Shown here: piece after piece, positions 1 through 20,816 of the stretch
How positions within the stretch are numbered: position 1 is the first letter of the stretch
Layout: each line of letters begins with the position of its first letter
Assembly: GCF_024298765.1 (NCBI RefSeq)
Contig: NZ_CP101210.1
Direction: 5' to 3' (one strand)
Source of the DNA: Escherichia coli
GTDB lineage: Bacteria > Pseudomonadota > Gammaproteobacteria > Enterobacterales > Enterobacteriaceae
Length of the DNA: 64,000 bases
Translations under genes and position numbers: made by a program
The notes under the pieces: model-generated
The model's input: the letters and a program-made list of their open reading frames with translations, nothing else
Told to the model about the DNA's origin: nothing
The model's database searches: none

Positions 1-788
1 ATAGGCCTGTCTTCTTCATACACAGCTGTTTTACCAACAAGTTCCTTACTGTTAGTACGATTGAAAAGAAGATCGCCTTCTTTAACCAAATATTTATCCT
101 TTTCTTTTACACTGAGATCAAGATATTTTAAATCTGTAAAATCCCACCTACCTTGATATGTTATATTACCCATCCGTAATATAGGATATTCACCAGAATC
201 AATAGAGGCTTTTGCTGAAGTTCCATAATTTACTGAATCAACCAAGTCGCGAATCGTTCCTTTCGGGAAACGATGTATGTTGTTTGCAGGAGTTCCAAAC
301 ATCTCTAGAAACTTAGCCCGCAAAAAATCATCAGCCAGTTTGATGGCTTGTTCGCGTTTTTGGCGTATACCCTCAGCTTTATCGAGAAGATCCACAATTC
401 GTTTCTGCTCTTCAAAAGGTGGTAATTTAATAAATGTATCATAGAGATCGTCTCTATTTAATCCAGGAATACTTGTGGTAATCGTTTTCTTAGTGAGATC
501 AATTCCGCTCAGAATATAAAACAAGTATCGGAGATCTAACTTATTATTATCTTTGATCTCAACGTAATAAGCAGTATCAATGATCCAACCTCCGTCAGGA
601 GCCCAGGTAATAGCACCAACGCTGCCTTTGCGACCAATAATTATCGTGGGATAGCTGCAAAGCGTTTTATCGTGGTTGCCGACAATTCCTGAACTACCAA
701 AAACATGGACACTTCCATTCGATACTCGCTGATCAGCTTTTAATGCTTTTCCGTAGTGAACATTAATAACATCCCCTAACTTCACCAT
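1..788 (-). CDS. hsdS: Type I restriction-modification specificity subunit HsdS (3' end beyond window)
   Basis: Reverse-strand ATG at 788-786, 8 bp downstream of hsdM stop; translation MVKLGDVINVHYGKALK... has TRD/conserved-spacer architecture; reading frame runs off the window start. Confidence 0.7.
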   Translation of the reverse strand, partial: MVKLGDVINVHYGKALKADQRVSNGSVHVFGSSGIVGNHDKTLCSYPTIIIGRKGSVGAITWAPDGGWIIDTAYYVEIKDNNKLDLRYLFYILSGIDLTKKTITTSIPGLNRDDLYDTFIKLPPFEEQKRIVDLLDKAEGIRQKREQAIKLADDFLRAKFLEMFGTPANNIHRFPKGTIRDLVDSVNYGTSAKASIDSGEYPILRMGNITYQGRWDFTDLKYLDLSVKEKDKYLVKEGDLLFNRTNSKELVGKTAVYEEDRP

Positions 789-796
789 CGCCGAAC

Positions 797-2431
797 TCAC
801 AGCATACCCTCCAGCTCATCCAGATCCGCCAGAATTTCTTTTTCCAAATCTTTTAAGCGCTTTAGTATCACCTTCGGATCTTCATATTCCTCCGCCTGAT
901 ACACCACTTCTTTATAACGATTGATAGAGAGATCGTATTTCTGCGCAGCAATATCCGCTTTCGGTACAACAAACGCCGCCTGCGTGCGATCTTTAAAATC
1001 AACGCCAGCATCAATCCCTTCCGGGTACTGCTGTTTAAGCAACGAGGCTAACTTCTCACCCATAAAGTTATCAACCGGTAGCCCGCGTAAAGTACGGTAA
1101 TGCTTCCAGCTTGCCAGCAGATGCGGCAGATCGTTGTCTTTTATCGGGTTGCGCTTATCATCCAGGCTGTAGCCATCATTTTGCAGATCGTAGAACCAGA
1201 CCTCATCCGTTTGACCGCCTTTGGTAAAGATCAGGATCGCCGTCGCCACGCCAGCGTAAGGTTTAAATACACCAGAAGGCAGATTGATCACCGCTTCCAG
1301 TTGGTTATCTTCCACCAGCGTTTTGCGAAGTGACTGGTGCGCCTTGCTGGAGCCAAACAGCACGCCCTGCGGCACGATAGTGGCACTGCGCCCGCCCACT
1401 TTCAGCATTTGCAGAATACGCGCCAGGAACAGCAGTTCGGTTTTTTTGGTTTTCACCATTGCCGACAACGTGGAGTCGATATCTTCCTCGTCCAGTGAAC
1501 CGGTAAAAGGCGGGTTCGCCAGAATCAGATTGAAAGCGTTTTTACTGGCCTGAGGGAAGTTAGTGCTGAAGCTCTGGCTCATGGTGTCCTGATAGTGAAT
1601 ATCCGGCGCTTCCACACCGTGCATAATCAGGTTCATAGCGGCGATACGCAGCATGGTGGTATCAAAATCGTAACCGTGGAACATATTGTTATCTACATGG
1701 TTACGCCACGGTGTCAGCAGATCGCCGGTAAAGATTTTTTGCTCTTCCAGTTCGCCACGTTCGTTGGTGCCAATCTCAGTATGGATGGATTCCAGCGAGC
1801 TGTACTTCTCCAGAAGATATTCATAGCTGGTTGCCAGAAAACCACCGGTGCCACAGGCGGGATCACAAATCGTCTCGCCGCGGGCCGGGTTCGGCTCCAT
1901 CATTTCAACCATCGTGCGGATAATGTGGCGCGGCGTGCGGAACTGACCGTTGATTCCGGCAGTGGTCAGCTTGCTTAACAGGTATTCGTAAAGGTCGCCT
2001 TTGGTGTCGCCACGATCCAGCGGCAGGTTTTTGATCACCTCAACCGCTTTGGTCAGTAATGACGGCTTAACAATCTCCAGACGAGCATCTTTCATAAAGT
2101 TGCCCAGCAGCGTCACCTTCGACGCATCGGCCTGGCCAAGCTGACGAAAATGCTGGAATACGCCATCGCGCACCACTTCCATCATCTCATCCGAGCCAAG
2201 ATTGCTATAGTGACTGAAACGGAACTCCTGCTGTTCTGGCGCAAAACGCGGTTTAAAATCAATTCCCGCGATTTGTTTACGCTTCTCGTCGCGTTGTTCC
2301 TGGGTATCCAGCATCCGGGAATACATCAGATAGGTGATCTGTTCGATTACGGTCAGCGGGTTGGTGATACCACCCACCCAGAAATCTTCCCACAGGCCGT
2401 CGATTTTACTTTTTAAGTCACCAGTGATCAT
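797..2431 (-). CDS. hsdM: Type I restriction-modification DNA methyltransferase subunit HsdM
   Basis: 544-aa ORF with ATG start; N6-adenine methyltransferase motifs ([10 protein letters not shown] AdoMet site, NPPF catalytic motif); gene order hsdR-hsdM-hsdS. Confidence 0.9.
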
Positions 2432-2449
2432 TGTTAGCGTTTATATCCT

Positions 2450-2483
2450 GTTTTAAATACAAAAGCCCCGCTGTCGGGGCTTG
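2450..2483 (-). terminator. Hairpin plus T-run between hsdR stop and hsdM start
   Basis: GCCCCG-CTGT-CGGGGC stem-loop (2465-2480) followed on the minus strand by a U-rich tract; lies in the 63-bp hsdR-hsdM gap. Confidence 0.35.
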
Positions 2484-2494
2484 TCATGTGCGTA

Positions 2495-5400
2495 TTATAC
2501 CGTCGCTGCGTCGGTCACAACACCCAGCTCTTCGACTATCTTTTGCAGGCGGGCGATCTGCTCTATATCCGGGAACACACCGGTAACGCCTTCGTTGTGG
2601 ATATGCGTAAAAGGCTGTTCAAAGAGCTGCCGCATTTCAATGGTGCCGTAATCGCGAATGTGGTTTTTCAGCAATGACAGGAAGCGCAGTTGTTGGCTGG
2701 TCAGACTGTTATCAGCGGCGAACTGAGCAAAGCGCACTTCCACCGCGTCGCTGTCCATCCCGATGATGGTACGCAAAAGTTTATCCAGGCTGGCAGTTGC
2801 CTGCGGATAGAACTCTTTCAGTGCCCGGATATCAACGTTGGGGTTCTGGATCAGCACCAGCTTCGCCAGCTCATCCAGCTCGTTTTGCGTGACTGGCTCA
2901 CCGTTGCGGATTTTCTTCAGCACCGGATTTTGCTGGAACAGCGGCTCCAACGCTCCCTGAACCTGCTGGCGATAGAGTTTGAAATCAATCGAGCGGATAT
3001 TAGTTTTGCGGGTCTCTGTCTGGATCAGGTTCGCATCTTCGGTAATATCTACCTGTATCGAACCAAATTTTGGCGTCGCGTCTTTTTCCATCAGGTGCAT
3101 GATGCCGCGCAGATGAATGCGGATATCTTCCAGCTCTTCCAGGCTGGCCTGCTTCCACCAGCCTAAATCACGAAGCTGATTGATCCGCGGTCCTTGCTGT
3201 TGGACCTGCGCCAAATGCGGCGGCAGGCGCTCCACTTTTTCGACGATGACCGGCCAGAGCACATCCAGCTCTTCCGGGTTGGTATAACGGGCAGTTTGCG
3301 CCGCCAGAATATCCATATCAAAGCGCATAGCGTCGCTTTGCCCGCGCACGTCCAGCCACTGCATCAGCGGGGCCAGGACAGATAGCAAATCCTGCTGTGT
3401 TTTCGGGGAAAGCTGGCGCAGCACTTTTTCATCGCTGTACTGCGCTTTTTGATGCCACTTTTCCTGGACGGCAATCGACTTTTCATCCAGTGCATTGATT
3501 TGCTCGCGTAGCTGGTGAGCAACTAAATCCACCGCCTGTTTGTCGAATTTACGTTGCGCAGCGGCCCCCAGCATAACCCACGCTTCGAAGCGTTTTTGTG
3601 CAAGCGATTTTGTCGCTGTGACTTCGGCCTCTTCGGTATGCAGTTCGTGATACTCAAAATTGCCCCAGTGATCGAAAATGCGGAATTTCTGTTTATCCAG
3701 AGGTTTGCCGTTATCGTCGTAACCGTACAACCCCGGACAGAGGCGCGTACCACGGCCAATCATCTGCCAGAACTTCACTTTTGATTTGACCGGTTTGGCA
3801 AAGACCAGATTCACAATTTCCGGGACATCAATACCGGTATCGAGCATGTCAACGGAGATAGCGATGGTCAGCTCTTTGTTGGTGCTTTCATCCAGCCCTT
3901 TAAAATCATCAATCAGTTGCTCGGCGCGGGGATCGTAATTGTCGATGACCTGGCAGAAGCGCCCGGCAAACTGCGGGTACATATCGTCGAATAATTCATT
4001 CAACAGCAGCGCGTGTTTGTGGTTACGGGCGAAAATGATGGTTTTACCTGGCAACTGGCCGTCCCGATCTTTCAGGCCATTTTCCATCAGGTTACGCAGG
4101 ATATAGCGGTTGGTGTCTTTGTTGTAGATCGCCTCATCCAGCGCCTTGCCATCAAACTCCAGCGTATTGGGATCTATGCCTTGTTCTTCCAGCTCGCGGA
4201 TTTGTGCGTCGCTTAATTTCTCCCGTTTGATGCCTTCGCGCAGGAATTCTGTGGTGTGCGTGACAACCTCATAGGGAACCAGATTGTTATCGGCGATGGC
4301 ATCTTCCAGGCTGTAGTTGGCGGTAGGAATACGTCCTTCACAACCAAACAGGCCGAAAGTGGTTTTACTCACCATGTCAATCGGCGTGGCCGTCAGGCCA
4401 ATCTGGAGGGCATCAAAATACTTAAACAGATCGCCGTAAACGTTGTAGATAGAGCGATGGGATTCATCGGCGATGATCAAATCGAAATAACCAACATCGA
4501 AATGGTCCATGATTTTCATCATACCAGGATAGGTGGCGATGTAGATCCTAGCATTCTGCCTGTCTGCTTTTTTCGATTTCCCGACCACATACAGCGGCTC
4601 ATTGGTGAATTGATTAAAGGCATTCGCCGCCTGTTTACGTAGTTCCTTGCGGTCGCAAAGAAACAGGACGCGTTTTACCCAGCGGGCATCAATCATCAGT
4701 TTGCTTAGCGCTATTGCCACGCGGGTTTTGCCTGTACCCGTAGCCTGAACAATTAGCGATTGCCGGTATTTGTTGGTAAACCGCTCGCTGACACGGGCAA
4801 TGGTTTCAAGCTGGTACAAACGTCCGGCAACGGCCTTACCTTCGTTATCTTTTACGTGCGGCACACTGTTCAGCGGAAGACGGGTTTCACGCTGTTGAAT
4901 AAGATATTGCAGGCTTTCCTTGCTGTAGAAGCCAAACACCCGACGCGGGGGATAACCATGAGTTTTATGGTCATCCCACAGCCAGATATCATAGCCGTTG
5001 GTGTAGAAGATGATCGGACGCTGGCCGTATTCTTTTTCCAGCCAGTCTGCATACAGCCGGGCCTGAATTCGTCCTTGCTCGGCATTGACGCTGGTTTTTT
5101 TTGCTTCCACCACCGCCAGCGGTTTGTGTGCCTCATCCCACAAGACATAGTCCGCATAACCGTCTCCGGTCGCGGTAGGTTGTTCTTTAACGGGATGTTC
5201 CTGCGTAACCTGATCGGTATTTTTAAGGCCTTCGCCTACATTCCAGTCAGCAGCAAGCAGGCGAGAGTCAATCAGGCGACGGCGGGTTTCCGCTTCATCA
5301 ATAGAGAGAATATCGGCAACATGCTGGTTACGCGCTCTGGCTTCATTCAGGCGTTGAGTGAGGTGTTCGGCCTTTTCCTGTTCTTGCTGTAGTGCGCGTT

Positions 5401-5911
5401 GCAGCGCCAGTTCGCGCTCACGGCTTTCATCCTGAGCCCTGATTGCATCTTCCAGACGTTTTTCATCTGCACGACCTGAAGATTGTGTTAATGGAGGGAG
5501 TGTAAATTTGGGGCAGTCATCAACATTACCGTGGGCGTAGCGAACATACAGCCAAATTCCCAACAAATACGCTTCTTTGAGCAGCCAGTAAGTATCTTTA
5601 GCTTTGATACGTCCGCCGTGCGCGGCACGGTTGCCATGGATACGCAGCGCATCCATTTTCATGATGATGGCTTCCGGCATCATGCTGGTAAAGACATCAG
5701 CATTCATTAAATCGTAAAGATTAGCCTTAATACCTTCCGGCAACCGCTCCTGACGATACAACCAGCGCACCATCAATTCGGTGTAGTTGCGCAGCTTGAC
5801 CAGACAGCTTTCCGGATCGGAGTGAACATAGCGTTCCGCCATACACGCGAGTTCAGCCAGTTCCGGCCACTGGCTGCGCAACATTTCAAAATTGAGAGAC
5901 TGCTCCATCAA
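2495..5911 (-). CDS. hsdR: Type I restriction enzyme endonuclease/helicase subunit HsdR
   Basis: 1138-aa ORF; N-terminus MMEQSLNFEML resembles EcoKI-type HsdR; PD-(D/E)xK-like segment (DYVLWDE...VVEAKK), Walker A QATGTGKT and DESH helicase motifs. First codon in track is TTG; ATG is the second codon (5908). Confidence 0.9.
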   Translation of the reverse strand: MMEQSLNFEMLRSQWPELAELACMAERYVHSDPESCLVKLRNYTELMVRWLYRQERLPEGIKANLYDLMNADVFTSMMPEAIIMKMDALRIHGNRAAHGGRIKAKDTYWLLKEAYLLGIWLYVRYAHGNVDDCPKFTLPPLTQSSGRADEKRLEDAIRAQDESRERELALQRALQQEQEKAEHLTQRLNEARARNQHVADILSIDEAETRRRLIDSRLLAADWNVGEGLKNTDQVTQEHPVKEQPTATGDGYADYVLWDEAHKPLAVVEAKKTSVNAEQGRIQARLYADWLEKEYGQRPIIFYTNGYDIWLWDDHKTHGYPPRRVFGFYSKESLQYLIQQRETRLPLNSVPHVKDNEGKAVAGRLYQLETIARVSERFTNKYRQSLIVQATGTGKTRVAIALSKLMIDARWVKRVLFLCDRKELRKQAANAFNQFTNEPLYVVGKSKKADRQNARIYIATYPGMMKIMDHFDVGYFDLIIADESHRSIYNVYGDLFKYFDALQIGLTATPIDMVSKTTFGLFGCEGRIPTANYSLEDAIADNNLVPYEVVTHTTEFLREGIKREKLSDAQIRELEEQGIDPNTLEFDGKALDEAIYNKDTNRYILRNLMENGLKDRDGQLPGKTIIFARNHKHALLLNELFDDMYPQFAGRFCQVIDNYDPRAEQLIDDFKGLDESTNKELTIAISVDMLDTGIDVPEIVNLVFAKPVKSKVKFWQMIGRGTRLCPGLYGYDDNGKPLDKQKFRIFDHWGNFEYHELHTEEAEVTATKSLAQKRFEAWVMLGAAAQRKFDKQAVDLVAHQLREQINALDEKSIAVQEKWHQKAQYSDEKVLRQLSPKTQQDLLSVLAPLMQWLDVRGQSDAMRFDMDILAAQTARYTNPEELDVLWPVIVEKVERLPPHLAQVQQQGPRINQLRDLGWWKQASLEELEDIRIHLRGIMHLMEKDATPKFGSIQVDITEDANLIQTETRKTNIRSIDFKLYRQQVQGALEPLFQQNPVLKKIRNGEPVTQNELDELAKLVLIQNPNVDIRALKEFYPQATASLDKLLRTIIGMDSDAVEVRFAQFAADNSLTSQQLRFLSLLKNHIRDYGTIEMRQLFEQPFTHIHNEGVTGVFPDIEQIARLQKIVEELGVVTDAATV

Positions 5912-6004
5912 TCATCGCCTTATGTCGTGGATACAACAGCATTTCTGGAAAGAATATCACACTAATTTGGCCGACGAAGTGAGCCGGAAAGGGCGGAATT
6001 ACCA

Positions 6005-6337
6005 TTAATTCTCATATTTAAAGTCGATGTTTATTTTGAGTGTTTCAATATTCACAGTGACTTCGCAACCATGCCAGAATGGCTTTTCTTGTGATTTAAA
6101 GTTATCCACAAACAAATTTCTTAGTTCCACCAAAAGATCTAAAAGTCTTTCACTGGCATCTGCGGTTTCAGTGATCCAATGTTGATTGCCCTGTTTATCT
6201 ACATAGTCATAAGTAAACTCACCACAGTCGCTTTCCGGTTCTAACTTTGCACACAGAATGATTTTGACTGCATCACTAGGAGTGATCGATAGCAACACCG
6301 AACCAATGTCATTATAAATATCCTGATCAGAACGCAT
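6005..6337 (-). CDS. Putative CdiI-type immunity protein for the adjacent CdiA-CT nuclease
   Basis: 110-aa ORF whose ATG (6337-6335) overlaps the TAA stop of the toxin ORF (TAATG coupling); small acidic protein, AT-rich; position typical of cdiI. Confidence 0.55.
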   Translation of the reverse strand: MRSDQDIYNDIGSVLLSITPSDAVKIILCAKLEPESDCGEFTYDYVDKQGNQHWITETADASERLLDLLVELRNLFVDNFKSQEKPFWHGCEVTVNIETLKINIDFKYEN

Positions 6338-9300
6338 TATTTACCTCCGGGTGCATTGTTAAATACTTTTTCAATCGGGCGACCTCCATCTATCGAATAT
6401 ACTACTTTAAATTTAGCAGGTCTGACACTATCCCCAATATACGATGGCTGAATGTTGACCTTAACCTCTTTTCCTTCACCCAATGCTTTTGCCCAAGTAT
6501 TTTCCATCTGCTTCCAGGCTCCTTTGTTCAGATTTCCATCCATTGGAACAAGGTTCAATTTTTCACCAGGACCATTAAAAATACTGGCTATTAAATGACC
6601 ACCCTCATCTCCATCAAGGCCACACTTACCTGCTTTACATTGTTGATAGCCATTTCTATCCTTTACATTAGGACTAAGAGTTGCTTCAACCTGGCTTGGC
6701 CTTGCCTGAGCATCAGTTTTATAAATTTTATCACCATCTACATGATAAACTTTATTCGGCTGTGGGTTATTTAGCTCTTTGCTCCAGTTCCCTTTACCAC
6801 CTGAGTCTAGCATCAGCTTTTCAAGTGACTCCGCACTGATTTTCTGACCTGTCTGTTTTTCAACAGCCATTAGAGCCTTCAACTCTGACAACTCGCTGGC
6901 AGACATTTTACCAACCGCCGCTACTGTCAGGCCCGCTGGAAGAGCATCGCCAGCGACCATTTCCGCAACCCAGATACTAACTTCATTTGCACACAGCACA
7001 GTATTCGCACCACAGGCACTGACTGCTGCCTGGGCGGCTGCAATTGCTTCCGGAGTCAGAGCAATCACTACCCCACCTGTAGCCCCCCCAACAAGCGCTG
7101 CTGCAATCGCTTTGTTTACAGCCTCACCGCGTTTACATTCAGCCCCGCCAGGGTTAGTCGAGCAGGACGCAATATCTTTGCCATGCTCCTGCACGAACTT
7201 GGTCTGAGTGTCTTCATTACCACCCAGCAGGTTATTCTCAACAACATTCTTCCCAGCAGCAGCTCCGGTAGCCACACCCGCAGTATTCCCACCTGCAACA
7301 CCACCCGCCATACCTGCTGAGATACTCGCCAGCGTACTTAGCGTCTGCTTCTGGTCCTCGGTCAGCTTCGACAGGTCTTTCTCATCCGGATATAAAACCT
7401 TCGCGATTGCACCTGCGATAAGTTCACCGCTCACCGCACCGACTGAACCTGCTGCGGCATTATTTCCCTGAAGAGCCGCAGTCACACCGCCGAGAATGGC
7501 ATGAGCAATGGCTTTCGCTGCATCGTTATCATTAATTCCAGCATTGTGCCCTATGAAGTTTGCCAGTTCCGGTGCAGAAGCTCCGGCCAGAGCACCCGCT
7601 AAATTCCCCCCAGCCAGTCCCTGAAGCGCGGCTGTCGCGGCCTGGATACCCCGCTGCATATCGCTACCGGTACCATACTTTTCCTGTTCCTTTTTGTATT
7701 CCGGCGTATCACGCAGTTTTGCCAGATATGCCTGCCGCTGTTCTTCCGTCGTATCCGCCGGAACAGGCCCATATTTATCCTGCGCAGCCTTCAACGCATT
7801 CAGTTCACCCTGCGTCCGCGCGATATCCGCCACCTGACTGCCTATGTCACTGATAAGCCCCACTGTCTGCAGACGCCTCTGCTCTTTCTCCTTGTCAAAT
7901 ATCGGGCTGATACTGTCGTTGGCGTGTTCCGGGTCACGGCTCAGGTTCGCCAGATTCTGCTTCTGATTGTCCCTGTCCCGGATGGTGATAGTGCCTTCTG
8001 CCACTGCGGCCTGAGTCGTTCCTTCCGCATGTCCGCTGTGACCTCCGGCGGATATCATGCCACCCGGCATGTTACCCTGAAATTTATCCCCGAAGCTGCC
8101 ACCACCGCTCAGACTGATTCCACTGTGACTGACTTTATAATCCGCTTCGTTGTGAAGGTCACTGAACCCCAGCGTTCCGGTATCCAGGTGGTTTTTATCC
8201 GGTGTGGCAGTGGAGGCAATCACCGCACCATCCAGTTGGGTATGTTTACCCACTGTGATGTCGAAGCCGCCGTCACCGGCAAACATTCCGGTTTGTTCAG
8301 CAACGGAGTCAAAGCGGCTCTTCATCTTATCCCGGGAGGCAGCGATGTAACCTGAGCCGGTCATGGAGCCAAAGGTAAAACTGCCGCCGGCAGCCACGCT
8401 GGTCTGTTTACTGTCGTACTTACTGGTGTCCTGCTGGCTGCTTATCAGCAGGTCGTGGCCCACATCGGCGATAATCCTGTTGCCGTTGACCTGAGCACCG
8501 TTCAGTACCGTATCCCGACCACTGTTGATGGTGACGGTTTTACCGCTGTCTATTGTGGTTTCAGTCCACTCAGTACCGTTACCTTTCTCGCTGCCTTTTG
8601 CCGCATTAACGCTGGCAAAGACACTGATACCGGCACCGTTACCACCGGCACCGATACTGACACCCACGCCACCGCCACTGCTGCTGTTCCTGCCCGTTGT
8701 TTTTTGTGTGTTTGCCGCGCCACTCAACAGAACATCATTCGCAGCATCCAGGTTTGTGTTACCACCGGCCTTAAGCTGGCTTCCGGCAATCACAATATCT
8801 CCGCGGTTATCGCCCCTGTTTTTACCGGTTGCGACAACAGACAGATTATTCCCGGCATTCAGCGTACTGCCGGATACTGTGTCACTTTCAGAATGTTGTT
8901 GTGATTTCGATTTCTGGGTGGTGAGCGACAGGCTGACTCCCATCGCATTCGGGTCACCGGTTGCGGAGGCCATTGCCGCAGCCTGTCCGGCCTGCACACC
9001 AGACAGCGCTGTCTTTGTAGCCTGCAGGGTTTTCAGACGGCTGTCACTGCTCTCCTTCGTCTCCTGTGCACTGGTGACCGCATTATTGATGGCACTGCCC
9101 ACTGTGCCGGAAAGGGCAACCGTCAGCCCGCTTTTCTTCTGCTCAAATTTTTCGTCCACAGTACGACGGTCATGCCCCGGGTCAACCACCACACTGTCAC
9201 CGGTAATGCTGATATCCCGGTTCGCAATCACATCCGAACCGCTGATATGAGCCTGTTTGCCCGCGGTAATACTGACATTACCGGCAGTGGAGCCGATGGT

Positions 9301-9801
9301 ACTGGCACTCTGACTCTGCGTTGTCCCGGCCTCGCGGCGGTCGTGCGTTGTCTTACTGCTGCCAATGGTGAAGCCAATACCGCCGGTACCCATCAGACCG
9401 GATTTCTTCGTTTCCTTAAAGCGCCAGGACGTATCTGTACTGGTGGCAGCAAGAACATCAACATGGTTACCCGCCGCCAGTGACACATCCCGGTCAGCCA
9501 CCACATCCGAACCCTCTACCGTCAGGTTATCACCGGCGTTAACGGTCACGCGGTTCCCCGACAGCAGGGAGCCTGCTTCACGGGAGGCACTGTTCTCACT
9601 GATGGTGTGGGTGGTTTTCTTACTGAGAAAACCTCCGCTTTTTTTCTTCGTTTCCAGATAGTGATAGTCACTTTCTGTCGCCGTGGTCAGGGCGACATCA
9701 CGACCGGCATTCACACTGATATTGCCGGTTGCGGTAACGGATGACGCAACAGCGGTGATACGCATACTGAAGAGCATTCCGTATAAAGATTCAGCTGGCA
9801 A
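6337..9801 (-). CDS. cdiA: 5'-truncated CdiA (contact-dependent inhibition toxin) fragment: FHA-repeat region, pretoxin-VENN, C-terminal nuclease toxin domain
   Basis: Gly/Ser/Thr-rich filamentous-haemagglutinin-type repeats; [16 protein letters not shown]...AGKNVVENN pretoxin-VENN motif (VENN codons at 7231-7242); 297-aa CT with GHLIAS...[14 protein letters not shown] resembling the Serratia nuclease / Endonuclease_NS active-site region. No signal peptide or TPS domain; frame opens at a stop with TTG as first codon, no cdiB nearby. Confidence 0.8.
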
Positions 9802-10032
9802 AACTTTATCAGTCCATAAAAATCAACGGAAGCGCAGATGGTTCACACGTCCATTACCAACTGATTGTTGTCACAACCGGTAACACAAAGTACTGAACGA
9901 CTGTTTTTAACAGCGGTGTTGCGTCATCCACCACCGTGAAACAACGCTGTGCAGGGAATCGTCCGCATCCCCATAACGGTCAAACATCGTGGCGTTGACA
10001 GAATGACCGACGAAAAGCCAGAAAGCGCTGAT

Positions 10033-10581
10033 TCACTGAGCTGTAATCAATGTACAGCGCTGTACCGGACGATGGGTAATGGCGGTCACAACCGGTAACC
10101 CCAGAGACAATGCGACTGTTTTTAACGCAACATACTGACCGGATGTATCACCCCGGGCAACCCGAAAACACCTTTCCACCCGGCATTGTCCGCCAGCACT
10201 TATCACCTGCCAGCTATGTTGCAGTAAATCCACCACTTGCGAACATTGTTCATCAACTGTGACACAGGCTCGCGGGTGACAAATACTCGTCTGGCTGAGC
10301 AGCAACAGGCATCGAATTGTTGCTCCTCCATGTTGTTCCCGCAACCAGCGTAATACCACCGACGATGATGGACTGGCAGTGTGATTGCTCTCAGTAATAC
10401 GTTCATGCAGTTGTCGATAAAAGGAAGTACAGAATGCATGAATCTGTTGCCCGTTGATATTTCCTTCTGCCGAATGGAGTGTGAAGTAAAATGCCAGCAA
10501 ATGCGGCCAGTGGTCCACCGCCTGCTGAACAAAACGCCGGATGTCTCCCGGCTCTGAAATTAAGGCTTCGGTTATTTGCAC
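10033..10581 (-). CDS. Hypothetical protein (possible remnant at the cdiA truncation junction)
   Basis: 182-aa ORF with overlapping alternative frame; no recognisable motifs; low coding confidence. Confidence 0.2.
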   Translation of the reverse strand: MQITEALISEPGDIRRFVQQAVDHWPHLLAFYFTLHSAEGNINGQQIHAFCTSFYRQLHERITESNHTASPSSSVVLRWLREQHGGATIRCLLLLSQTSICHPRACVTVDEQCSQVVDLLQHSWQVISAGGQCRVERCFRVARGDTSGQYVALKTVALSLGLPVVTAITHRPVQRCTLITAQ

Positions 10582-11026
10582 GAAATGTTCCTTTTCAAAC
10601 CCTGTTGGATTTTGTCAAGACGGTACAGACACAGTAAAGCGCGCATCAACACCTGAAAGGTACGATACAAACACAAGTTACAAACAATAAGAACGGAAGG
10701 ACAATTAATCAGTGAGGAATAATAACTAAATTAACCAAAAGAATGTTACTGACAATACCACCAATACTTAAATAGCAATATATTAATTAATGTAAGAACA
10801 GATGCCCGGTAAGACATATACACAATACATCCACAAACACACTCTTTTCATTAAATAAATCACCTGATTAAACCATGAAAGTGTGATGTAAGTCAAAATT
10901 ACTGACACAATCAATTGATAATGATTATCTCTATCATTATCGTGAAATTCGAGAATGAAAGGAGAAGTAGTCATTATAAGTCTTTTATAAATCGTCATCA
11001 TCATAGTAAAGTAGAACACTTTTTAT

Positions 11027-11485
11027 ATGAGTTACTATATGAAAATATACTGGACAAGAAAAAACATTCCTGAACTTTCAGCACTTCCACCTTCATTAAG
11101 AAAGAAAAATTTTACTGACGCATATAATGCTGCATCTTCCCATATCGAATACTGGATAGGTGCTGGCGTCTCATTTATCTCGATGATGATTTTATTCAAA
11201 GTATATGACTTTCTTTTACCCGCCCAAGATACTTTCCCGGGTGATATCATAAGAAGTTTATGTGTTGTGTGTCCATCCATATTAATCTGGTTTCAGTTTT
11301 CGGTATATGTCATGAGGAAATATTACAGACATATTCTGGAACGAGGTAAGGAAACCGAAACCATTTCAGAAAGGTTGATACGTGAGGCTGATACACGAGA
11401 ATATGAATTATGGCGTCCGGCCCATCGCTTTTTCTCCATTATTCTATTAGTTTGCATTCATTCACTGATAACAACTATAAAATAA
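11027..11485 (+). CDS. Hypothetical small membrane protein (microcin-locus accessory)
   Basis: 152-aa ORF with ATG start, two or more hydrophobic segments; AT-rich, adjacent to the CPBP gene and microcin genes. Confidence 0.4.
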   Translation: MSYYMKIYWTRKNIPELSALPPSLRKKNFTDAYNAASSHIEYWIGAGVSFISMMILFKVYDFLLPAQDTFPGDIIRSLCVVCPSILIWFQFSVYVMRKYYRHILERGKETETISERLIREADTREYELWRPAHRFFSIILLVCIHSLITTIK

Positions 11486-11584
11486 AAGTTATGGCTGTTC
11501 TGATACAGGAAAATAAACGTTCATTCTATGGTTACCTCTTCCTGTTATATAAAAGAATTTTAAACAACAAGTAAGGGAATATAA

Positions 11585-12271
11585 ATGGAAATAACAAAAA
11601 ATAAAAATGCAACTATAAAAAAACAGTCATCAGCCGGCTGCTTTTCAATGTTTACTTTATCATTTTCCATTACCTTTATTCCTGCATTTCTTACAAACAG
11701 GCAGGAACTTATATCCAGGGGGCTTCTTGTTCCAGCATTATTTCTTGCTGAATTTCTAATTCTTGTTCCACTGTATTTTATTTTCTTCCGAAAAAGAGAA
11801 GGATTAGGAAGAGGTTCTTTTCGACTGGATGTTTTTTTTACTCTTTTCTCTTTAATAATGATTATTCAGTTATTTGTCCCTTATCTGCTGGCAGTGAGGA
11901 AAACGGAAGAATGGATGATCTCGCAAATGTCTTTTTCCGGGGCCATTTTATGGATTAATATATTTTCTTCCGTACTTCTTGTTCCTGTATATGAAGAGAT
12001 TGTATTTCGAGGGTGTCTTTTTAACTCTTTTAAATTCTGGTTTAATGACAATATTTACATCTCTGCTATTGTAACATCAGTCATATTTTCTGCATTACAT
12101 CTACAATATACTGACTTTCGTACATTTTTGATGCTCTTTCTGATATCGTTAGTTCTTATCAGTGCAAAAATAAAGTCGAATGGCCTGTTAATGCCCATAT
12201 TACTTCACATGGCGATGAATGCAGTCATAACAGGAATACAATATACGTTACAATATCACATAACAGTCTGA
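11585..12271 (+). CDS. CPBP-family (CAAX protease / Abi) intramembrane metalloprotease-like protein, putative bacteriocin self-immunity
   Basis: 228-aa polytopic membrane protein with family motifs EEIVFRG, FSALHL and LLHMAMN; ATG preceded by AAGGGAA Shine-Dalgarno. Confidence 0.75.
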   Translation: MEITKNKNATIKKQSSAGCFSMFTLSFSITFIPAFLTNRQELISRGLLVPALFLAEFLILVPLYFIFFRKREGLGRGSFRLDVFFTLFSLIMIIQLFVPYLLAVRKTEEWMISQMSFSGAILWINIFSSVLLVPVYEEIVFRGCLFNSFKFWFNDNIYISAIVTSVIFSALHLQYTDFRTFLMLFLISLVLISAKIKSNGLLMPILLHMAMNAVITGIQYTLQYHITV

Positions 12272-13266: not shown

Positions 13267-15369
13267 CTAATTTGTAATTCTAAAAATCCGATCAACTGTT
13301 CTTAAAGTTGTCTCTCTATGTGCAATAATCACCCGGGTGATATTCATCTTTTTTATAGCAGCATTCACGAAACGTTCACTTTCTGTATCAAGAGAACTTG
13401 TAGCCTCATCCATAAATAATATTCCAGGTTTCCGGTATAAAGCTCGGGCAATGAATATACGCTGTTTTTGACCGCCGGAAAGACCTTCCCCCAGTTCACC
13501 TATTAACGTTTCATACCCCATTGGCATTTTCATTATCACATCATGAATATGACTTGCTCTGGCACATTCTGTCATCCATTCGTCGTCTGTTTCTTCTGCA
13601 AACCCACAGATATTTTCACGAATTGATCCTGAAAATAGCCGGTCGTCCTGCATAACACAGGCTATCATACGGTGATAATTATTTATTCCAAGTTGACGTA
13701 TATCCGTGCCATTAACCAGTACTTTTCCACTATCTGGTTCAAACAGTCCACATAATACTTTCATTAATGTGGTTTTTCCGGCACCGGAGGCACCAGTTAT
13801 AGCCACACTTTCTCCCGGAGCCACAGACAAATTCAGACCACTGAATACCTGTGCTGACTGGCTGTCATACCGGTAGCTTAAATCAGTGGTTTCCAGTGAA
13901 ACCGGGCTCATGTCAGCAACGATTTCAATTTCCGGTTTCTTTTCTTCCTTTTCATGTAGTGCAATATCTGCAATGCGCTCATTATGCAGACTCATTATTC
14001 TCAGTTGAAGAAGAAAACTGGTCAGCGAAGCAACCCGATCCGAAAACTGCCCACGAAAAGAACCAAATGCCACAAACATCCCTATTGTCATCTGATTATC
14101 GATCACAAGGCTTGCACCCAGCCATAAAATCGCCACCTGATCACAGGCGGCAACAAAAGTATTTATCCCCCCGAAGAGCAAATCCATCCTGGTTAACTTA
14201 ATACCTGAATTGATCGCATCTATTTTCAGGTTAAGCCAGTGTGTTCCCCGAATCCCAGCCATACCCTGGATTTTTACCGTGGCAATACCATACAGGCTTT
14301 CCATAAAATAGGAGCTGGCCCGGGCCCCCCTGACAAGAGTTTCTTCCGATATTTGCCGGTAATAGCCGTATGTCACCAGACGAATAAGAACGTAAACCAT
14401 GGTAAAACCGAGCACTATCCAGGTAAGATATCCTCCATATAACAGCATCATCACAAAAACACCCACAACCATAATACTGTCCATGATTGCCCCAACAACA
14501 CAGGTGGTAAAGGTGGCCCTCAAAGTGTCAAGGGAGCCAAAACGCGACTGGATATCACCTAATTTACGGCGTTCAAAAAACGCCAGCGGCAGTCTGAGAA
14601 GATGGTTAAACAGACCCGACTGCCACTGTATATTGATGAGCGTGCTCATAACCAGTGAGGACCATGCACGCAGCATACTCACCGCGGCCCTGAGCAATAT
14701 AAAGAACATCAGGCCAGCAGAAATAAGCGTCAGCAGCCCTCTGTCCCCCGCCGGAATCGCATGATCCATAACCAGCTGAGTTCCCACCGGCATTACCAGA
14801 TTGATTGCTTCAATTACAACTGACAGACAGAAAATTTTCGCCAGTGTTCTTTTAATACCGTAAATACTGTTAATCAGTGAACGGAGACTTATGCGGGTCT
14901 GCTGGGTTTCCGCCAGGAATTCACTTCCGGGCCAGACCTCAAGTGCAATGCCCGTAAAATACCGGCTCATTTCCTCCCGACCGAGATATCTTCTGCCTCT
15001 GGCCGGATCATGCAGTACATAACGGTTACGCTTTACGCTGACCAGCACGACGAAGTGACTGAAATCCCAGTGGAGAATACACGGCATTTTGAGGGCACCA
15101 AGTTCATCCAGCTCCAGTGAAAGAGCCCGGGTGACCATCCCCAGCTGCTCCGCTATTCCATTGATTCCTGCAAGGTTTGCTCCACGGGCCGAGAGATTAA
15201 ACTTCCGGCGAAGAGATATCAGGTCAATATTCTTACCAAAATGACCGCATATCATTGCCAGGCAGGCCAGTCCACATTCAGCGGTCTCCGTCTGATGAAT
15301 AACCGGAACACGACGTCGCCAGCGCATATCAAGCTGATTTATAATTTGTCTGAAATTCCCGTTAGTCAT
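13267..15369 (-). CDS. mchF: Microcin ABC exporter with N-terminal C39 peptidase domain (CvaB/MchF family)
   Basis: C39 peptidase motif [15 protein letters not shown], six TM segments, Walker [13 protein letters not shown] signature LSGGQKQR. Track start 15387 is GTG; ATG at 15369 gives [10 protein letters not shown]. Confidence 0.9.
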
Positions 15370-16636
15370 TGAGCGGTCCTGTTGCACTGTGTTTCATGTC
15401 ATAGAAAGGAGAAAGCATCCACTGGTAAATACGCCTTTTTTCCAGAAATAGTGTACTTTCGGCTTTCATTCCATTTTCCAGAGGGAGGTATTTTTCGTCA
15501 TATCTGATAATCTGCTTTTCAGGCATCGCAATGACTTTATACCAGGGAACAGAGTCGCCCGGCGTATTCTGTGGTGCTCCCTTATAGGTCAACATTTCCT
15601 GTGTTGACGCAGGAGTCCTGGATATAGTTTTAACCGTAGCAGAGAACTGCCCAAATTTTTCTGCCGGAAAGGCTTCATAACGAATATTCACTTTGTCACC
15701 AGCCGAAATATAAGGAACAGCATCATTCGGGACCCAGAGAATAAGATAATAGTTTTCAATGTTCTCAGGAATAACCTGCAGAAGGCTGTCTCCGGTATTG
15801 ACCATTTGCCCGACAGTGACACTCAAGGAGTCAACTTTCCCGTCAGTCAACGCCCGGATAATGATTTCGCCCTCCACATCAGTGTTAACCAGTTCTTTCT
15901 GTAACTCATACCGTTGCAGTTCCATCTGGTAGATACGGTTATCAAAATCTGCAGCCTGAGTCTGAATCTGACTCTCCAGAGTGGTTATCTGCAGGGCATT
16001 CTGTTCGTTCTGTCCGCTCAGGCTGAGAAGATTGTTTTGTTGCTGATAATATAATGCCACCTGGTTAGTTAACTGATCTTTATTAATCAGCCCTTTTGCC
16101 TGATAGTTTCTGTAATTCTCCATATTGTTTTTCATTATTTTTATCCCTTCCTCTGCACGCTGTATAATATCTGATGAGCGACGAAACGCATCTGTGTATT
16201 GCAGGCGTTGTTTTTCCAGGGTATCTAGCGTTATTTTTTTACTTTCTTCCAGACGGGAAATAATGTTGTCCACACGAACCAACTGGTTTTCTATATCCCG
16301 ACGATGATTATCAGTGACAATACCACTACGTGTACTTTTACTGATGTCAATCAGATAAACAGGATCCCCTTTTTTTATCAACTGTCCTTCATGAACAAAC
16401 TGCCTGACAACAAATCCCTGTACACCTGAATATATATTGACAGCTCTTGGCCAGGTTGTGACCTCACCACTGACATTAACACGGCGGCTATAGGTACCAA
16501 CAATAATGAACATCAGAAATGCCGTAATAAACACTATGCTTCCCAGCATGATTAACCATAGTGGTATTCCGGGAAGTAATATTGCCCGTCCCTGCCACTT
16601 CATTTTTCTGTTTTCTAAAGCATCCTGACGAAACAA
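15362..16636 (-). CDS. mchE: Microcin secretion membrane-fusion protein (CvaA/MchE, HlyD family)
   Basis: 424-aa [30 protein letters not shown]..., single N-terminal TM plus coiled-coil; overlaps mchF start by 8 bp; first codon is TTG. Confidence 0.9.
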
Positions 16637-16788
16637 AATAGCTCCTCTTACTCACACTTTTCCTGTAATACCTTCACTGGTTAACCGAAATGCTATAATC
16701 AAAGCCAGAAAATATAGAGTCCTGTTAAAATAGTATCAGCGATGCATTTACCCCGTAATTTACAATTATCTCTGTATCTTCAGAGGTA

Positions 16789-17241
16789 CTACGTTTTATG
16801 CAGCCGCTCAGGGATGTATGTCACAATTTTCTTTCGCCTGCTTAACCATCGTACTTCTCCTTCTCCCCATGGCTGAAGCTGTATGAGATAGTCAATAACT
16901 TTTCGACCAAAGCCTGGTTTACAACAGAAATCCAGAATCCAAATCCTTCCATCTTCATTCCATTCAGACGGATGCAACCTGAATTCTGGATCCCTGAGCA
17001 GGCGCGCTTCTGTATCAGCCTCAAGATATGCCCAGGTAATATACGCCAGTGGAAAACCTCGTGAATCAAACAGGAATTTAATCTGATTATGCTGTATCGC
17101 ATATTCAGTCCAGTATTGAATGGTTAACACCGGATACAGACTGTAATTACGATTGTAGAGCATACAACTGACCGCAAAACCGATCTGTTCATAAACAGTC
17201 CATTCATCTTTTCCTCTGATGTTTTCCCTTATATAAGACAT
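16789..17241 (-). CDS. mchD: Microcin maturation protein MchD (MceI-like, HlyC-type acyltransferase family)
   Basis: 150-aa ORF with ATG start directly downstream of mchC; HlyC/toxin-activating acyltransferase-like sequence. Confidence 0.75.
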   Translation of the reverse strand: MSYIRENIRGKDEWTVYEQIGFAVSCMLYNRNYSLYPVLTIQYWTEYAIQHNQIKFLFDSRGFPLAYITWAYLEADTEARLLRDPEFRLHPSEWNEDGRIWILDFCCKPGFGRKVIDYLIQLQPWGEGEVRWLSRRKKIVTYIPERLHKT

Positions 17242-17266
17242 GATTACTATTTCCCTTATATATTTT

Positions 17267-18817
17267 TTACACTGTGTTTCTTATCGGTTCAAGATATCCA
17301 AATGCATCTCTGGAAAACTTAAGCATAAAATTTTTCATATCAGAAATTGCTTCTTGTAAAAAAAGGGGATCATCGCCATGATTATCCAGCAGGATGGCAA
17401 TTTTTTCGCACATATTCTCTTTCCTCAGCTCTTCCCTGGGTTGCAGCCTTTTCATGGTATGATGTTCAATTTCTTTCAGGAGTAATGAGGCATTTATCTG
17501 ACGTCTGGTACTGCCTTGCGTCAGCCAGTGGATGGCCTGGGAAAAACACTGTTGTGCAACGGTGAAATAAACATCATTCTTGATGCTACTATTCAGTGCC
17601 TGCTTTTGATTATGCCTATGATGGATTAGCGTCACAACCAACTTTTGCAATGGTGAACCATCCTGATTGACAATATCTTGGGCATGTGATTTCTCGCAGT
17701 ATTGATTGAGTAATGCAACAAAACTGTTAACCAGTTCTTTCAATATATCAGGTATCTCTTTTTGTGTTATAAATTCTCCAGGAATACCCAACAGTTCTAG
17801 ATAACAGTAATAACATGCTTCATGAAAAGTTTTCTGAAATATCTCCTCAACCTTCAAACGGGCTGCAAGAGTGAAGTCAGGGTCAAACATATATTTTCCG
17901 ATATACAAGCAGAGATCAGACAGCCCTTGCATAAGTACCATCGGTTCTTTTGCCAGTTCAGCTAATCTTAGTTTATACCCAAAATCAGCTGGGGAATCTC
18001 CCGGAAACAGACAACTGAGTCCGCTAAAATCCATTAATCTGCCATCCATTGCAATATTAGAAGGAGAAGTTGTCAATCTCAGGAAACGTGTTCGACAAAA
18101 TGCCATTTGCCAGGCCTCACGACGTGCCAGTTCACATAACCCCTCAATGCAATAAATCCGGGGATCAGTTCGTGCTTCAGCATCAATTTCTTCCGGTGGT
18201 ACAGGTAGATATCCTGGCAGCTTGTGGATCACAGATCTAACCCGACAGGCATCGTGAATTAACAGACTGGAATACTCCGGTTTTACTTGGAAGTAAGGTG
18301 CCCGTTCAAAATGCGCCGGACGAACAACAGGCTCACGTACCAACAGGGCTCTTCGTGATTTCCTACCGGAGCGCTCAAATGCCTTTTCAGTATAGAGATC
18401 TGTAAGTAAAACCGCCCGAACCCGCACAGCACTATAAGGTAATATTTGAGCCAGTACTTCTCCCCACAAAGCCTCATATATTGCATGAACAGCGCCGAGT
18501 GCACCATTAGAATGACGTTCGTCAGTACCTTCGCCAACCAACGGATTACTTCCTATTCCTTTAACCTGGTAGTTACCATCAAACCCACAACGTGCACCAC
18601 CTCCATTACGCTGAATACCACTGCCACCATAGCGCTCTGCATGGAACACTTTGGCAGAAGCTGTACTGCCAGGATCGATAATATAACTGCAGGCATTTTG
18701 CAGCTCGTCTGGATTTCTGACATCCTCTGCACACCAGATTAATGAGGCCTTGATCTGCCTGGCAGTGAAAGGCACCAGGTTTTCATTCAGTTCAGAAAGT
18801 GAACACTGATGACTCAT
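17267..18817 (-). CDS. mchC: Microcin maturation protein MchC (MceJ-like)
   Basis: 516-aa ORF with ATG start, immediately downstream of mchB in the mchIBCDEF order. Confidence 0.8.
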   Translation of the reverse strand: MSHQCSLSELNENLVPFTARQIKASLIWCAEDVRNPDELQNACSYIIDPGSTASAKVFHAERYGGSGIQRNGGGARCGFDGNYQVKGIGSNPLVGEGTDERHSNGALGAVHAIYEALWGEVLAQILPYSAVRVRAVLLTDLYTEKAFERSGRKSRRALLVREPVVRPAHFERAPYFQVKPEYSSLLIHDACRVRSVIHKLPGYLPVPPEEIDAEARTDPRIYCIEGLCELARREAWQMAFCRTRFLRLTTSPSNIAMDGRLMDFSGLSCLFPGDSPADFGYKLRLAELAKEPMVLMQGLSDLCLYIGKYMFDPDFTLAARLKVEEIFQKTFHEACYYCYLELLGIPGEFITQKEIPDILKELVNSFVALLNQYCEKSHAQDIVNQDGSPLQKLVVTLIHHRHNQKQALNSSIKNDVYFTVAQQCFSQAIHWLTQGSTRRQINASLLLKEIEHHTMKRLQPREELRKENMCEKIAILLDNHGDDPLFLQEAISDMKNFMLKFSRDAFGYLEPIRNTV

Positions 18818-19088
18818 CTGGCAGTATTCTCCGTTTCAATTTTCATAAAAGAGTGTTCATAAAAGAGCAAGTAAGTGTCCTGACAGCTTCTTCCTTATTA
18901 CAGTAAAACTCTATTAATTACACATAAATTAAAAAATTATTTATCAACGACTGTAAATCATATCTTCATCAGTAAAGTGTTGAACATAAAAACACACTTA
19001 TAAATGGATCTTCTATCTGTTTTAAACAAAAAGGATATATTTTACAGGTACTACCGAAAAAGTGCCTGTAAAATAAATAAAAATATAA

Positions 19089-19316: not shown

Positions 19317-19343
19317 ATAAACTGCATATAAACTCCATCATAT

Positions 19344-20800: not shown

Positions 20801-20816
20801 GCAGGAGGTTTTTAAA

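Follow-up and report, generated by a model that had tools for sequence, protein, structure and literature searches.

An in-situ cdiBAI remnant in Escherichia coli, truncated by a 9,384-bp deletion with its immunity gene intact

Introduction

The closest described counterparts of the locus reported here are the EsaD (EssD)/EsaG pair of the S. aureus T7SS (PDB: 8GUN, 8GUO, 8GUP), the YeeF-CT/YezG pair of a B. subtilis LXG toxin, and the orphan cdiA-CT/cdiI modules known from the E. coli strains EC93 and EC869. EsaG splits the sheet of its nuclease, and the finger loop of EsaD (RPFKE) has been proposed to play important roles in both catalysis and inhibition by EsaG (PMC9616950). For YeeF-CT, a non-specific DNase that depends on metal and cannot do without its conserved histidine H581, binding by the immunity protein is in the nanomolar range (PMC7033585). 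EsaD, YeeF, and Dickeya RhsA are given as DNases of the Pfam family PF13930 in a 2023 review, which includes no CdiA tip of the EsaD/YeeF family among the characterised CDI nucleases (PMC9990079). CdiA is mentioned beside YezG in PMC7033585 and PMC9990079 as background only, and no paper came up in a full-text literature search combining CdiA with Endonuclease_NS_2. The orphan modules of these two strains (Poole et al. 2011, PMC3150448) combine a 5′-truncated cdiA fragment, including VENN motif and toxin, with a cognate cdiI preceded by a Shine-Dalgarno sequence of its own. They are without initiation signals, sit 3′ of an intact cdiBAI and share a transcript made from the cdi promoter; expression of the orphan cdiI was described in the same work, and immunity is their likely retained role. 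Selection by CDI “surveillance” has been described as well (PMC4927057).

The locus examined here lies in a 64,000-nt stretch of E. coli DNA (the window, to which all coordinates refer). With EsaD/EsaG it shares the PF13930 nuclease family (E 1.4e-17), an immunity gene placed directly after the toxin gene, and the fold of the immunity protein (TM 0.74-0.76, 23-24% identity between CdiI and EsaG). In contrast to EsaD, a T7SS substrate, the toxin belongs to the type Vb CdiA delivery route with FHA repeats, PT-VENN, and an entry-like domain; the RPFKE finger loop is missing from the C-terminal (CT) tip, where the alignment has a 5-residue gap, and CdiI has 110 aa against ~160 aa in EsaG. The tips of YeeF and of the CdiA described here are both of PF13930 type (for YeeF according to the table in PMC9990079), and CdiI falls in the Pfam family “Immunity protein YezG-like” (PF04634); YeeF is delivered by LXG/T7SS in a Gram-positive host, unlike the CdiA tip, the activity of which is predicted. 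RhsA-CT of Dickeya dadantii 3937, a polymorphic tip of a T6SS-associated Rhs protein, is placed in the same nuclease family by that table, and differs from CdiA in its Rhs/T6SS delivery. The resemblance to the EC93 and EC869 orphans extends to the likely retained role, immunity, and to a cdiI with its own start and Shine-Dalgarno sequence. Unlike in those modules, it is the primary gene that is truncated here: no intact cdiBAI lies upstream, and the 1140-codon fragment has lost the cdi promoter region and gained an ATG, so that initiation signals are not absent.

Architecture of the locus

Two overlapping ORFs make up the locus, both on the minus strand, a point on which the first-pass annotation of this DNA was silent. 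The larger one (6337..9801, 1154 codons, TTG start) begins in frame directly 3′ of a stop codon. Two Pfam matches to Fil_haemagg_2 (PF13332), at ORF residues 68-195 (window 9217-9600, E 2.5e-11) and 294-468 (8398-8922, E 2.6e-45), together span a region of FHA-2-type hemagglutinin repeats at 8398..9600. These are followed by a PT-VENN pre-toxin domain (PF04829, residues 811-860, 7222..7371, E 4e-16), in which the VENN codons, GTTATTCTCAAC at 7231-7242 and the reverse complement of GTT GAG AAT AAC, encode residues 2935-2938 of full-length CdiA. The variable CT runs from 7230 down to 6340 (891 nt, 297 aa) and consists of an N-terminal half (CT residues 1-143, 6802..7230) and a nuclease domain (CT residues 144-297, 6340..6801).

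The smaller ORF is cdiI (6005..6337, 110 aa), which is intact. On the minus strand the end of cdiA and the start of cdiI read GGAGGTAAATAATG; the TAATG overlap is genuine, because the stop codon TAA (6339-6337) and the start codon ATG (6337-6335) share a base. A GGAGG Shine-Dalgarno sequence (6344..6348) lies inside the last cdiA codons, 6 nt 5′ of the cdiI ATG. Thus the description first given to this region, that is, a frame opening just after a stop, FHA repeats, VENN, a 297-aa CT, and a 110-aa ORF coupled by TAATG, is borne out by both the Pfam matches and the bases themselves, as is its reading as a 5′-truncated cdiA with an intact tip and a coupled immunity gene of cognate type. The remnant retains the CDI features of FHA repeats, PT-VENN, variable CT, and downstream cdiI.

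Origin of the truncation

Across positions 5900-10100 the window is 100% identical to E. coli ACN002, whereas in 32 other genomes the match ends at 9760. Near-identical strains carry an intact cdiB-cdiA-cdiI with a 3235-aa CdiA at the same site; in FDAARGOS_1287, which has the same flanking genes, cdiB, the 3235-aa cdiA, and cdiI are all present. The protein encoded by the remnant is 100% identical to residues 2096-3235 of the FDAARGOS_1287 CdiA, so that codons 2096-3235 of the 3235-codon gene, its 3′ third, plus the stop codon occupy 6337..9759 (minus strand). In a blastn comparison of the window with the relative L002, the two matching segments abut at 9760/9761 and 9,384 bp are absent between them. 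The deleted segment held cdiB, a gene for a 77-aa hypothetical protein, an ECs1377-family gene except for its first five bases, and cdiA codons 1-2095, which encode the signal peptide and, at residues 36-288 of full-length CdiA, the TPS domain (E 1.8e-50). The initial finding that signal peptide, TPS domain, and cdiB are missing was thus correct, and all of them can be located in the lost DNA, the cdiB gene for the Omp85/ShlB-type transporter by synteny with FDAARGOS_1287.

The junction itself (9760..9761) contains no IS element. The breakpoints fall within cdiA and at the start of a gene unrelated to it, with 2 bp in common, a TA microhomology (5/6 in GTG[A]TA), and the deletion arose by illegitimate recombination. 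As a consequence the 5′ end of the large ORF is the 5′ end of the upstream gene, brought in by the deletion: ORF codons 1-13 (9801-9763) and two bases of codon 14 (9762-9761) are not derived from cdiA, the cdiA codons beginning at 9759. The ATG of the deleted ECs1377-family gene (9763..9765, minus strand) now leads in frame into cdiA codon 2096, giving MR|ITAVASS... at the fusion point.

Among 5,426 complete RefSeq genomes, the junction is seen in ACN002 alone. It is spanned at 100% identity in the other assemblies L008, L010, L011, and L012, the identical junction being present in GCA_037165025.1 and in the Logan assemblies of ERR13369800, ERR14748681, and SRR27033076, and the exact 1142-aa fusion product is found on 12 contigs. 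With the junction in at least five independent assemblies, the deletion is real and clonal.

The first-pass annotation had taken the locus for a displaced toxin-tip/immunity cassette and had proposed to look for a full-length cdiBA elsewhere in the strain. Synteny with FDAARGOS_1287 identifies the locus as the primary cdiA, still in its original place and shortened by the 9,384-bp deletion, and not as a displaced orphan cassette. No second cdiB or cdiA 5′ end was found by megablast on the ACN002 chromosome record, where the cdiB plus TPS-coding query places once; this check covers copies of ~85% identity or better, and a divergent or plasmid-borne cdiBA would escape it.

Start codon and transcription

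Gene callers report a 1142-aa product from the ATG at 9765-9763 in GenBank (ALY15804.1) and in Logan/ENA and NCBI assemblies, and PGAP annotates the remnant as a pseudogene without N-terminus. No Shine-Dalgarno sequence is evident before this ATG (CTCTTCAGTATG). A sigma-70 and terminator scan of 5800-10800 returned no minus-strand sigma-70 consensus site; its total was below the shuffle expectation, and the scan therefore carries no information on expression. The region 5′ of cdiB, that is, the cdi promoter region, was also deleted, and any transcription into the remnant would have to come from the sole candidate, the stretch that once preceded the ECs1377-family gene (9766..10032, minus strand).

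The segment 9766..10032 also contains one copy of a bipartite repeat. A paralogous relationship between the neighbouring 182-aa gene and the ECs1377-family gene, considered as an explanation for a shared 15-nt repeat, was rejected on a BLASTP match of only 6 residues at E 0.40. NCBIfam yielded no family for either the 182-aa gene or the remnant.

The nuclease tip

Pfam assigns ORF residues 1015-1139 (window 6385-6759) to Endonuclea_NS_2 (PF13930) at E 7e-37, covering model positions 1-132/132. The closest solved relative is the EsaD nuclease 8GUO_B, found with phmmer against PDB sequences at E 1.4e-17. The histidine of GGHLIAS (His3150 of full-length CdiA, CT residue 212, codon 6595..6597, minus strand) aligns with the sole position that separates 8GUO_B from the 8GUN chain (GGHLIA vs. 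GGALIA); the latter was deposited as mutant H528A, and the aligned residue is hence EsaD H528. This catalytic-type histidine is nearly invariant in an alignment of 39 homologues (A2). The last asparagine of PMDGNLN (Asn3173, codon 6526..6528, minus strand) aligns with N551, the Mg-binding asparagine of EsaD. By analogy, His3150 would serve as the general base and Asn3173 as the metal ligand, and the tip is predicted to be an Mg/Mn-dependent non-specific DNase of EsaD/YeeF type with a His-Me finger. Both the DNase activity and the preference for DNA over RNA are predictions from these alignments.

An AF2 model of the 297-aa CT has a mean pLDDT of 64.8, with the catalytic finger (CT residues 190-231) below 50. 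Nucleases of EsaD/YeeF type have a central beta-sheet and a beta-beta-alpha-metal finger; Foldseek with this model gave EsaD 8GUN as the best match (E 3e-7, probability 1.0, TM 0.55 target-normalised, finger pLDDT <50). Since AF2 does not model either the entry-like domain or the finger reliably, we draw no structural conclusions on them. The proposal that the CT is a nuclease is upheld by the profile and PDB sequence matches, with which the best Foldseek match agrees. It had been likened to the Serratia/EndoG type, of which the assignment to the His-Me-finger non-specific nucleases stands and the family does not: the motif is DEGGH, not DRGH, and no PF01223 (Endonuclease_NS) match to the large ORF was found by Pfam at E<=10. 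The DRGH-family proteins EndA, NucA, and Sda1 are weak fold matches (probability 0.41-0.90). The likeness to Serratia nuclease, EndoG, and EndA is therefore at the level of the superfamily only, with DEGGH analogous to DRGH, the closest relatives of the tip all being of PF13930 type.

The two halves of the CT have separate relatives. The nuclease tip is 59% identical to the tip of a Burkholderia multivorans CdiA that has a different N-terminal region. CT residues 1-143 are 66% identical to the homologue P0109, which then turns to an unrelated C-terminus, and this half is also common to P0107, P0111, P0114, and P0116. The comparison suggests that residues 1-143 form a putative cytoplasm-entry domain, for which phmmer (E up to 1) found no CdiA-CT or other relative among PDB sequences.

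The immunity protein

The cdiI product (WP_001255836.1 in PGAP; the same accession occurs in the four other strains whose annotation was read) matches the YezG-like family PF04634 at E 8e-6, and TIGR01741 of NCBIfam at 27 bits, under the 82-bit cut-off. Its AF2 model is of good quality (pLDDT 87.9, pTM 0.82), and the best six Foldseek matches in the PDB are all BH3703 (DUF600) or EsaG (probability 1.00, TM 0.69-0.76), the seventh following at E 0.04. At the sequence level, phmmer with CdiI retrieved nothing relevant from PDB sequences, and a profile of 31 CdiI homologues reached EsaG at E 0.89. This tie being weak, the link to EsaG rests on the Pfam match and the predicted fold. At two distant loci a gene of ~110 aa likewise directly follows the nuclease, and only the downstream protein of one of them, L004, bears a faint YezG-like Pfam mark. 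Taken as a whole, CdiI appears to be a compact EsaG/YezG-fold protein that would neutralise the nuclease by tight binding.

Discussion

We consider it very probable that the region is a disarmed, in-situ remnant of a complete cdiBAI that keeps immunity as its only plausible function. A single illegitimate-recombination deletion removed cdiB, the signal peptide, and the TPS domain, and left CdiA residues 2096-3235 (FHA-2 repeats, pre-toxin/VENN, and a bipartite CT) together with the intact cdiI. The toxin can be neither delivered nor displayed, because there is no signal peptide, no TPS domain, no CdiB, and no detectable second cdiB or cdiA 5′ end on the chromosome. With delivery lost, the strain probably still resists the toxin: CdiI would protect it against relatives that still deploy the same allele. 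Such an outcome would fit CDI surveillance selection, in which cells losing cdiI are removed and cells losing only cdiBA are spared. The same allele has been knocked out independently by ISEc13 in strain Rb-23 and by IS421 in N10, and cdiB is frameshifted in strain 89-3156, with cdiI intact in all three; the IS insertions point in the same direction.

An alternative is that a new, expressed gene arose from the deletion, in which the ECs1377-family start and upstream region drive a 1142-aa cytosolic nuclease fragment coupled to CdiI, either as an addiction module that stabilises the island or as a means of assuring cdiI expression. The acquired ATG and cdiA codon 2096 share a frame, as they would in 1/3 of random fusions, and the ATG lacks an evident Shine-Dalgarno sequence and any promoter-like site in the scan. 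The calling of the product in GenBank and in independent NCBI and Logan assemblies is offset by the pseudogene label of PGAP. The truncated allele does persist in no fewer than five samples that were sequenced independently, and the start of cdiI overlaps the stop and is preceded by a strong Shine-Dalgarno sequence, but the lability of type II antitoxins is not known from CDI immunity proteins, the two mechanisms being contrasted in PMC4927057. On balance we find such a gene unlikely. Its most specific form, a weapon turned toxin-antitoxin-like addiction module that helps to keep the microcin/R-M island, with a cytosolic DNase fragment tolerated via coupled CdiI, strikes us as unlikely too, a shade more so than the gene itself. 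The pair could also serve to probe whether EsaG “toxin-deformation” immunity works in a Gram-negative organism, with a 110-aa CdiI and a nuclease without finger loop.

A classical orphan cdiA-CT/cdiI, that is, an old tip pushed downstream by a new CT/cdiI and preserved either in silent reserve or for added immunity, would also be 5′-truncated and retain VENN, CT, and cdiI. The identical module is a true orphan in 89-3156, where a 909-nt pseudogene copy lies behind an intact cdiA, after that cdiA and a deaminase-type orphan, and in strains JNU, A1.S1.65, BH100, and others the annotation has it as a fragment on its own, named “DNA/RNA non-specific endonuclease”. In ACN002, however, no cdiBA lies upstream, and both flanks are collinear with strains whose primary cdiA ends in this same sequence, one clean deletion being the difference. 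The fragment moreover begins 839 codons upstream of VENN rather than close by, and it has acquired an in-frame ATG, whereas orphan fragments are without initiation signals (PMC3150448). We therefore hold this origin to be highly improbable. An assembly collapse within the repetitive FHA sequence of ACN002, which the highly repetitive nature of cdiA and the single occurrence among the complete RefSeq genomes might suggest, has practically no chance of being correct and is effectively refuted by breakpoints that are not repeats of each other (2 bp shared) and by the identical junction in the four other data sets listed above.

As a remnant disarmed in place, the locus represents gene decay of an ordinary kind that is already annotated. 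It illustrates that a cdiA tip found truncated beside its immunity gene need not be an orphan cassette; synteny decides here. CdiA tips of the EsaD/YeeF family with EsaG-fold immunity are common in Enterobacterales and occur also in Burkholderia, Pseudomonas, and Xanthomonas. As no such tip is among the reviewed CDI nucleases, the present pair would be a reasonable model for shared EsaG inhibition, and could show whether this inhibition spans the Gram-positive T7SS and Gram-negative CDI. For the lineage itself, the loss of the CDI weapon (cdiB and the cdiA 5′ end) with retention of cdiI is the outcome expected under surveillance selection.

Domain organization and genomic setting of the cdi locus

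The locus consists of two ORFs on the minus strand. The large one (6337..9801), which contains the cdiA remnant, opens with a TTG and has 1154 codons; directly 3′ of it is cdiI at 6005..6337 (110 codons). Pfam identifies in the large ORF two blocks of Fil_haemagg_2 repeats (E = 2.6e-45 and 2.5e-11), one PT-VENN domain (E = 4e-16) and a complete Endonuclea_NS_2 domain (PF13930; E = 7e-37, model positions 1-132 of 132). The VENN codons occupy 7231-7242 and are followed by 297 amino acids, the C-terminal toxin tip (CT). The stop codon of the large ORF overlaps the ATG of cdiI within a TAATG at 6339-6335, and a GGAGG Shine-Dalgarno sequence lies 6 nt 5′ of this ATG. Since the ORFs, the Pfam domains, the VENN site, the CT length and the TAATG overlap could each be located, all elements listed in the first-pass annotation (ORFs, FHA repeats, VENN, 297-residue CT and coupled 110-residue ORF) are real. 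In the PGAP annotation, 6337-9759 is a pseudogene ("missing N-terminus") and the product of the small ORF is an "immunity protein YezG family protein."

The remnant lies inside a genomic island (~1-43600) that adjoins cadC and has a frameshifted integrase fragment at its boundary (~43450-43600). Other parts of the island are a type I R-M system (797-5911), a microcin H47 cluster (mchF, an HlyD-family export gene, mchB, mchI, and mchS3; ~13267-20800), one IS2 copy, and a block of CP4 type whose cbtA/yeeU toxin-antitoxin genes are in several cases frameshifted. We also noticed a bipartite repeat on the plus strand, GTCACAACCGGTAAC-N13-CGACTGTTTTTAAC, in two copies ~215 bp apart (9870-9911 and 10085-10126), one intergenic and upstream of the ATG that now opens the fused reading frame, the other within the terminal 3′ part of a 182-aa UCP030791-family gene. 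Both copies contain the exact 15-mer of this repeat, the chance expectation being 0.09. The two neighboring proteins are not paralogues, and the repeat may derive from a gene fragment or serve as a binding site.

A primary cdiA gene truncated in place

The region 5900-10100 is 100% identical to the chromosome of E. coli ACN002, and 32 further complete genomes match it up to 9760 only, a position within a gene annotated as full-length cdiA. In E. coli FDAARGOS_1287 the same flanking genes enclose an intact cdi locus: a type I R-M hsdR-like helicase gene on one side and, on the other, genes for the 182-aa UCP030791-family protein, a CPBP protease and microcin H47 export. That intact locus comprises an ECs1377-family gene, a 77-aa gene, cdiB (ShlB/FhaC family), cdiA (3235 aa) and cdiI. 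Aligned to it, the window forms two collinear segments that meet at 9760/9761, with 9,384 bp absent. Microhomology at the breakpoint is limited to TA (5/6 in GTG[A]TA), and no IS element was found at the junction. The remnant protein is identical to residues 2096-3235 of the FDAARGOS_1287 CdiA, and the lost N-terminus contained the signal peptide and the TPS domain (residues 36-288, E = 1.8e-50). The earlier description of a 5′-truncated cdiA without signal peptide, TPS domain or cdiB is accurate, all three being encoded in the deleted stretch. As a result of the deletion, cdiA codon 2096 now stands in frame with the ECs1377-family start codon (ATG, 9765-9763), and the fusion reads MR followed by ITAVASS...

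The deletion is real and clonal. The junction is spanned at 100% identity in GCA_037165025.1 and in the Logan assemblies ERR13369800, ERR14748681 and SRR27033076, which rules out an assembly artefact as the source of the truncation and shows that the allele is carried by a lineage. The exact 1142-aa fusion product is present in the protein collection (ALY15804.1) and encoded on 12 contigs. Between 5001 and 12760 (7,760 bp), one base is mismatched relative to the window in GCA_037165025.1, and one in the GenBank version of ACN002; the Logan contigs are shorter and span only part of this interval, in which they are identical to the window.

The first-pass annotation had taken the locus for a displaced orphan cassette. 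Orphan cdiA-CT/cdiI modules, as described by Poole et al., lie downstream of an intact cdiBAI, are without initiation signals, and are co-transcribed from the cdi promoter (PMC3150448). None of these three features is found at the ACN002 locus, and the synteny with FDAARGOS_1287 shows that a primary cdiA was cut where it stood. E. coli 89-3156 does have this CT/cdiI pair as such an orphan: a pseudogene of 909 nt that comes after cdiA and after a deaminase-type orphan. Several further genomes have the pair annotated as a fragment of its own. Another orphan pair of 89-3156 (locus positions 10563-11862) is situated between its primary cdiA and this nuclease orphan; it consists of a toxin fragment resembling cytidine deaminases and, after it, a DUF6911 protein that presumably confers immunity.

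It had also been proposed that a full-length cdiBA be sought elsewhere in the strain. The region 5900-10100 was joined to cdiB and the TPS-coding part of cdiA and used as a megablast query, for which ACN002 ranked top, its chromosome matching the query at one site only. At megablast sensitivity, which covers non-divergent copies, the ACN002 chromosome thus has no second cdiB or cdiA 5′ end.

Toxin tip

The CT is bipartite, with a putative entry domain in front of a toxin domain, which is the usual layout. Over residues 1-143 it shares 66% identity with P0109, whose C-terminus beyond this region is unrelated, and the region is also common to four other such proteins; no named or solved relative of this entry-like domain was found. 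Residues ~131-297 are 59% identical to the tip of a Burkholderia multivorans CdiA that differs in its N-terminal part.

The C-terminal domain matches the crystallized nuclease domain of Staphylococcus aureus EsaD/EssD (E = 1.4e-17). Its GGHLIA motif lines up with the catalytic H528 of EsaD (Ala in 8GUN, deposited as mutant H528A), and the final Asn of PMDGNLN with the Mg ligand N551. The "finger loop" RPFKE of EsaD is absent from the CT. The AlphaFold2 model of the CT (mean pLDDT 64.8) also has EsaD as its best PDB match (E = 3e-7, probability 1.0), followed by weaker matches to the DRGH-type nucleases EndA, NucA and Sda1. [quoted passage not shown]

The pLDDT of the model falls below 50 at CT residues 190-231 (6538-6663), a stretch with the catalytic His and the Asn of NLVPMD, and is 74-93 in the flanking β-strands. 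By alignment these residues fall mostly inside EsaD residues 504-556, which are untraceable in the EsaD-EsaG complex (PMC9616950). The low values may reflect real flexibility, or just a shallow alignment.

Immunity protein

Pfam assigns CdiI to the YezG-like family (E = 8e-6); its TIGR01741 score is under the cut-off, and sequence searches of the PDB give weak matches. The AlphaFold2 model, built from 31 homologues, is confident (pLDDT 87.9, pTM 0.82) and has as its six top PDB matches only DUF600 proteins, namely BH3703, free EsaG and EsaG bound to EsaD (probability 1.00, TM 0.69-0.76), and the next match comes after a gap (E = 0.04). CdiI shares 23-24% identity with EsaG, which is ~50 residues longer and inhibits EsaD by splitting its β-sheet and unfolding the catalytic finger (PMC9616950). 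A gene for a protein of ~110 aa directly follows the nuclease in both distant loci examined, in a metagenomic contig and in B. multivorans; it is YezG-like by Pfam, faintly, in the metagenomic contig only.

Probable present role of the locus

The CT/cdiI module is present in 47 of 5,426 complete E. coli genomes. In the truncated form, the loss of signal peptide, TPS domain and CdiB makes toxin export impossible, and the part that can still matter is probably cdiI, in its putative immunity role. In strains Rb-23 (locus positions 13333-24896) and N10 (13333-24392) the same cdiA allele is disrupted by ISEc13 and by IS421, respectively, and in 89-3156 cdiB is frameshifted (21860-23625). With cdiI (WP_001255836.1) intact after each of these three independent inactivations, the weapon seems to have been lost repeatedly while immunity was kept. 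This fits the published model of CDI surveillance, in which CDI+ siblings eliminate cells that lose immunity, so that there is selection to keep and express cdiI (PMC4927057).

Expression is where this reading is weakest: the region 5′ of cdiB is deleted in ACN002, and a scan of the minus strand found no promoter-like site. Transcription of the remnant and cdiI would have to start in the upstream region of the ECs1377-family gene or at a promoter inside the remnant. Translation of the fusion ORF, with its product and CdiI acting like an addiction module, is a minority reading that we consider unlikely. What is left at the site is a pseudogene of a known system, produced by deletion, and, with no characterized CdiA of the PF13930 family in the table of a 2023 review (PMC9990079), its toxin/immunity pair belongs to a known family that is new to CDI work.
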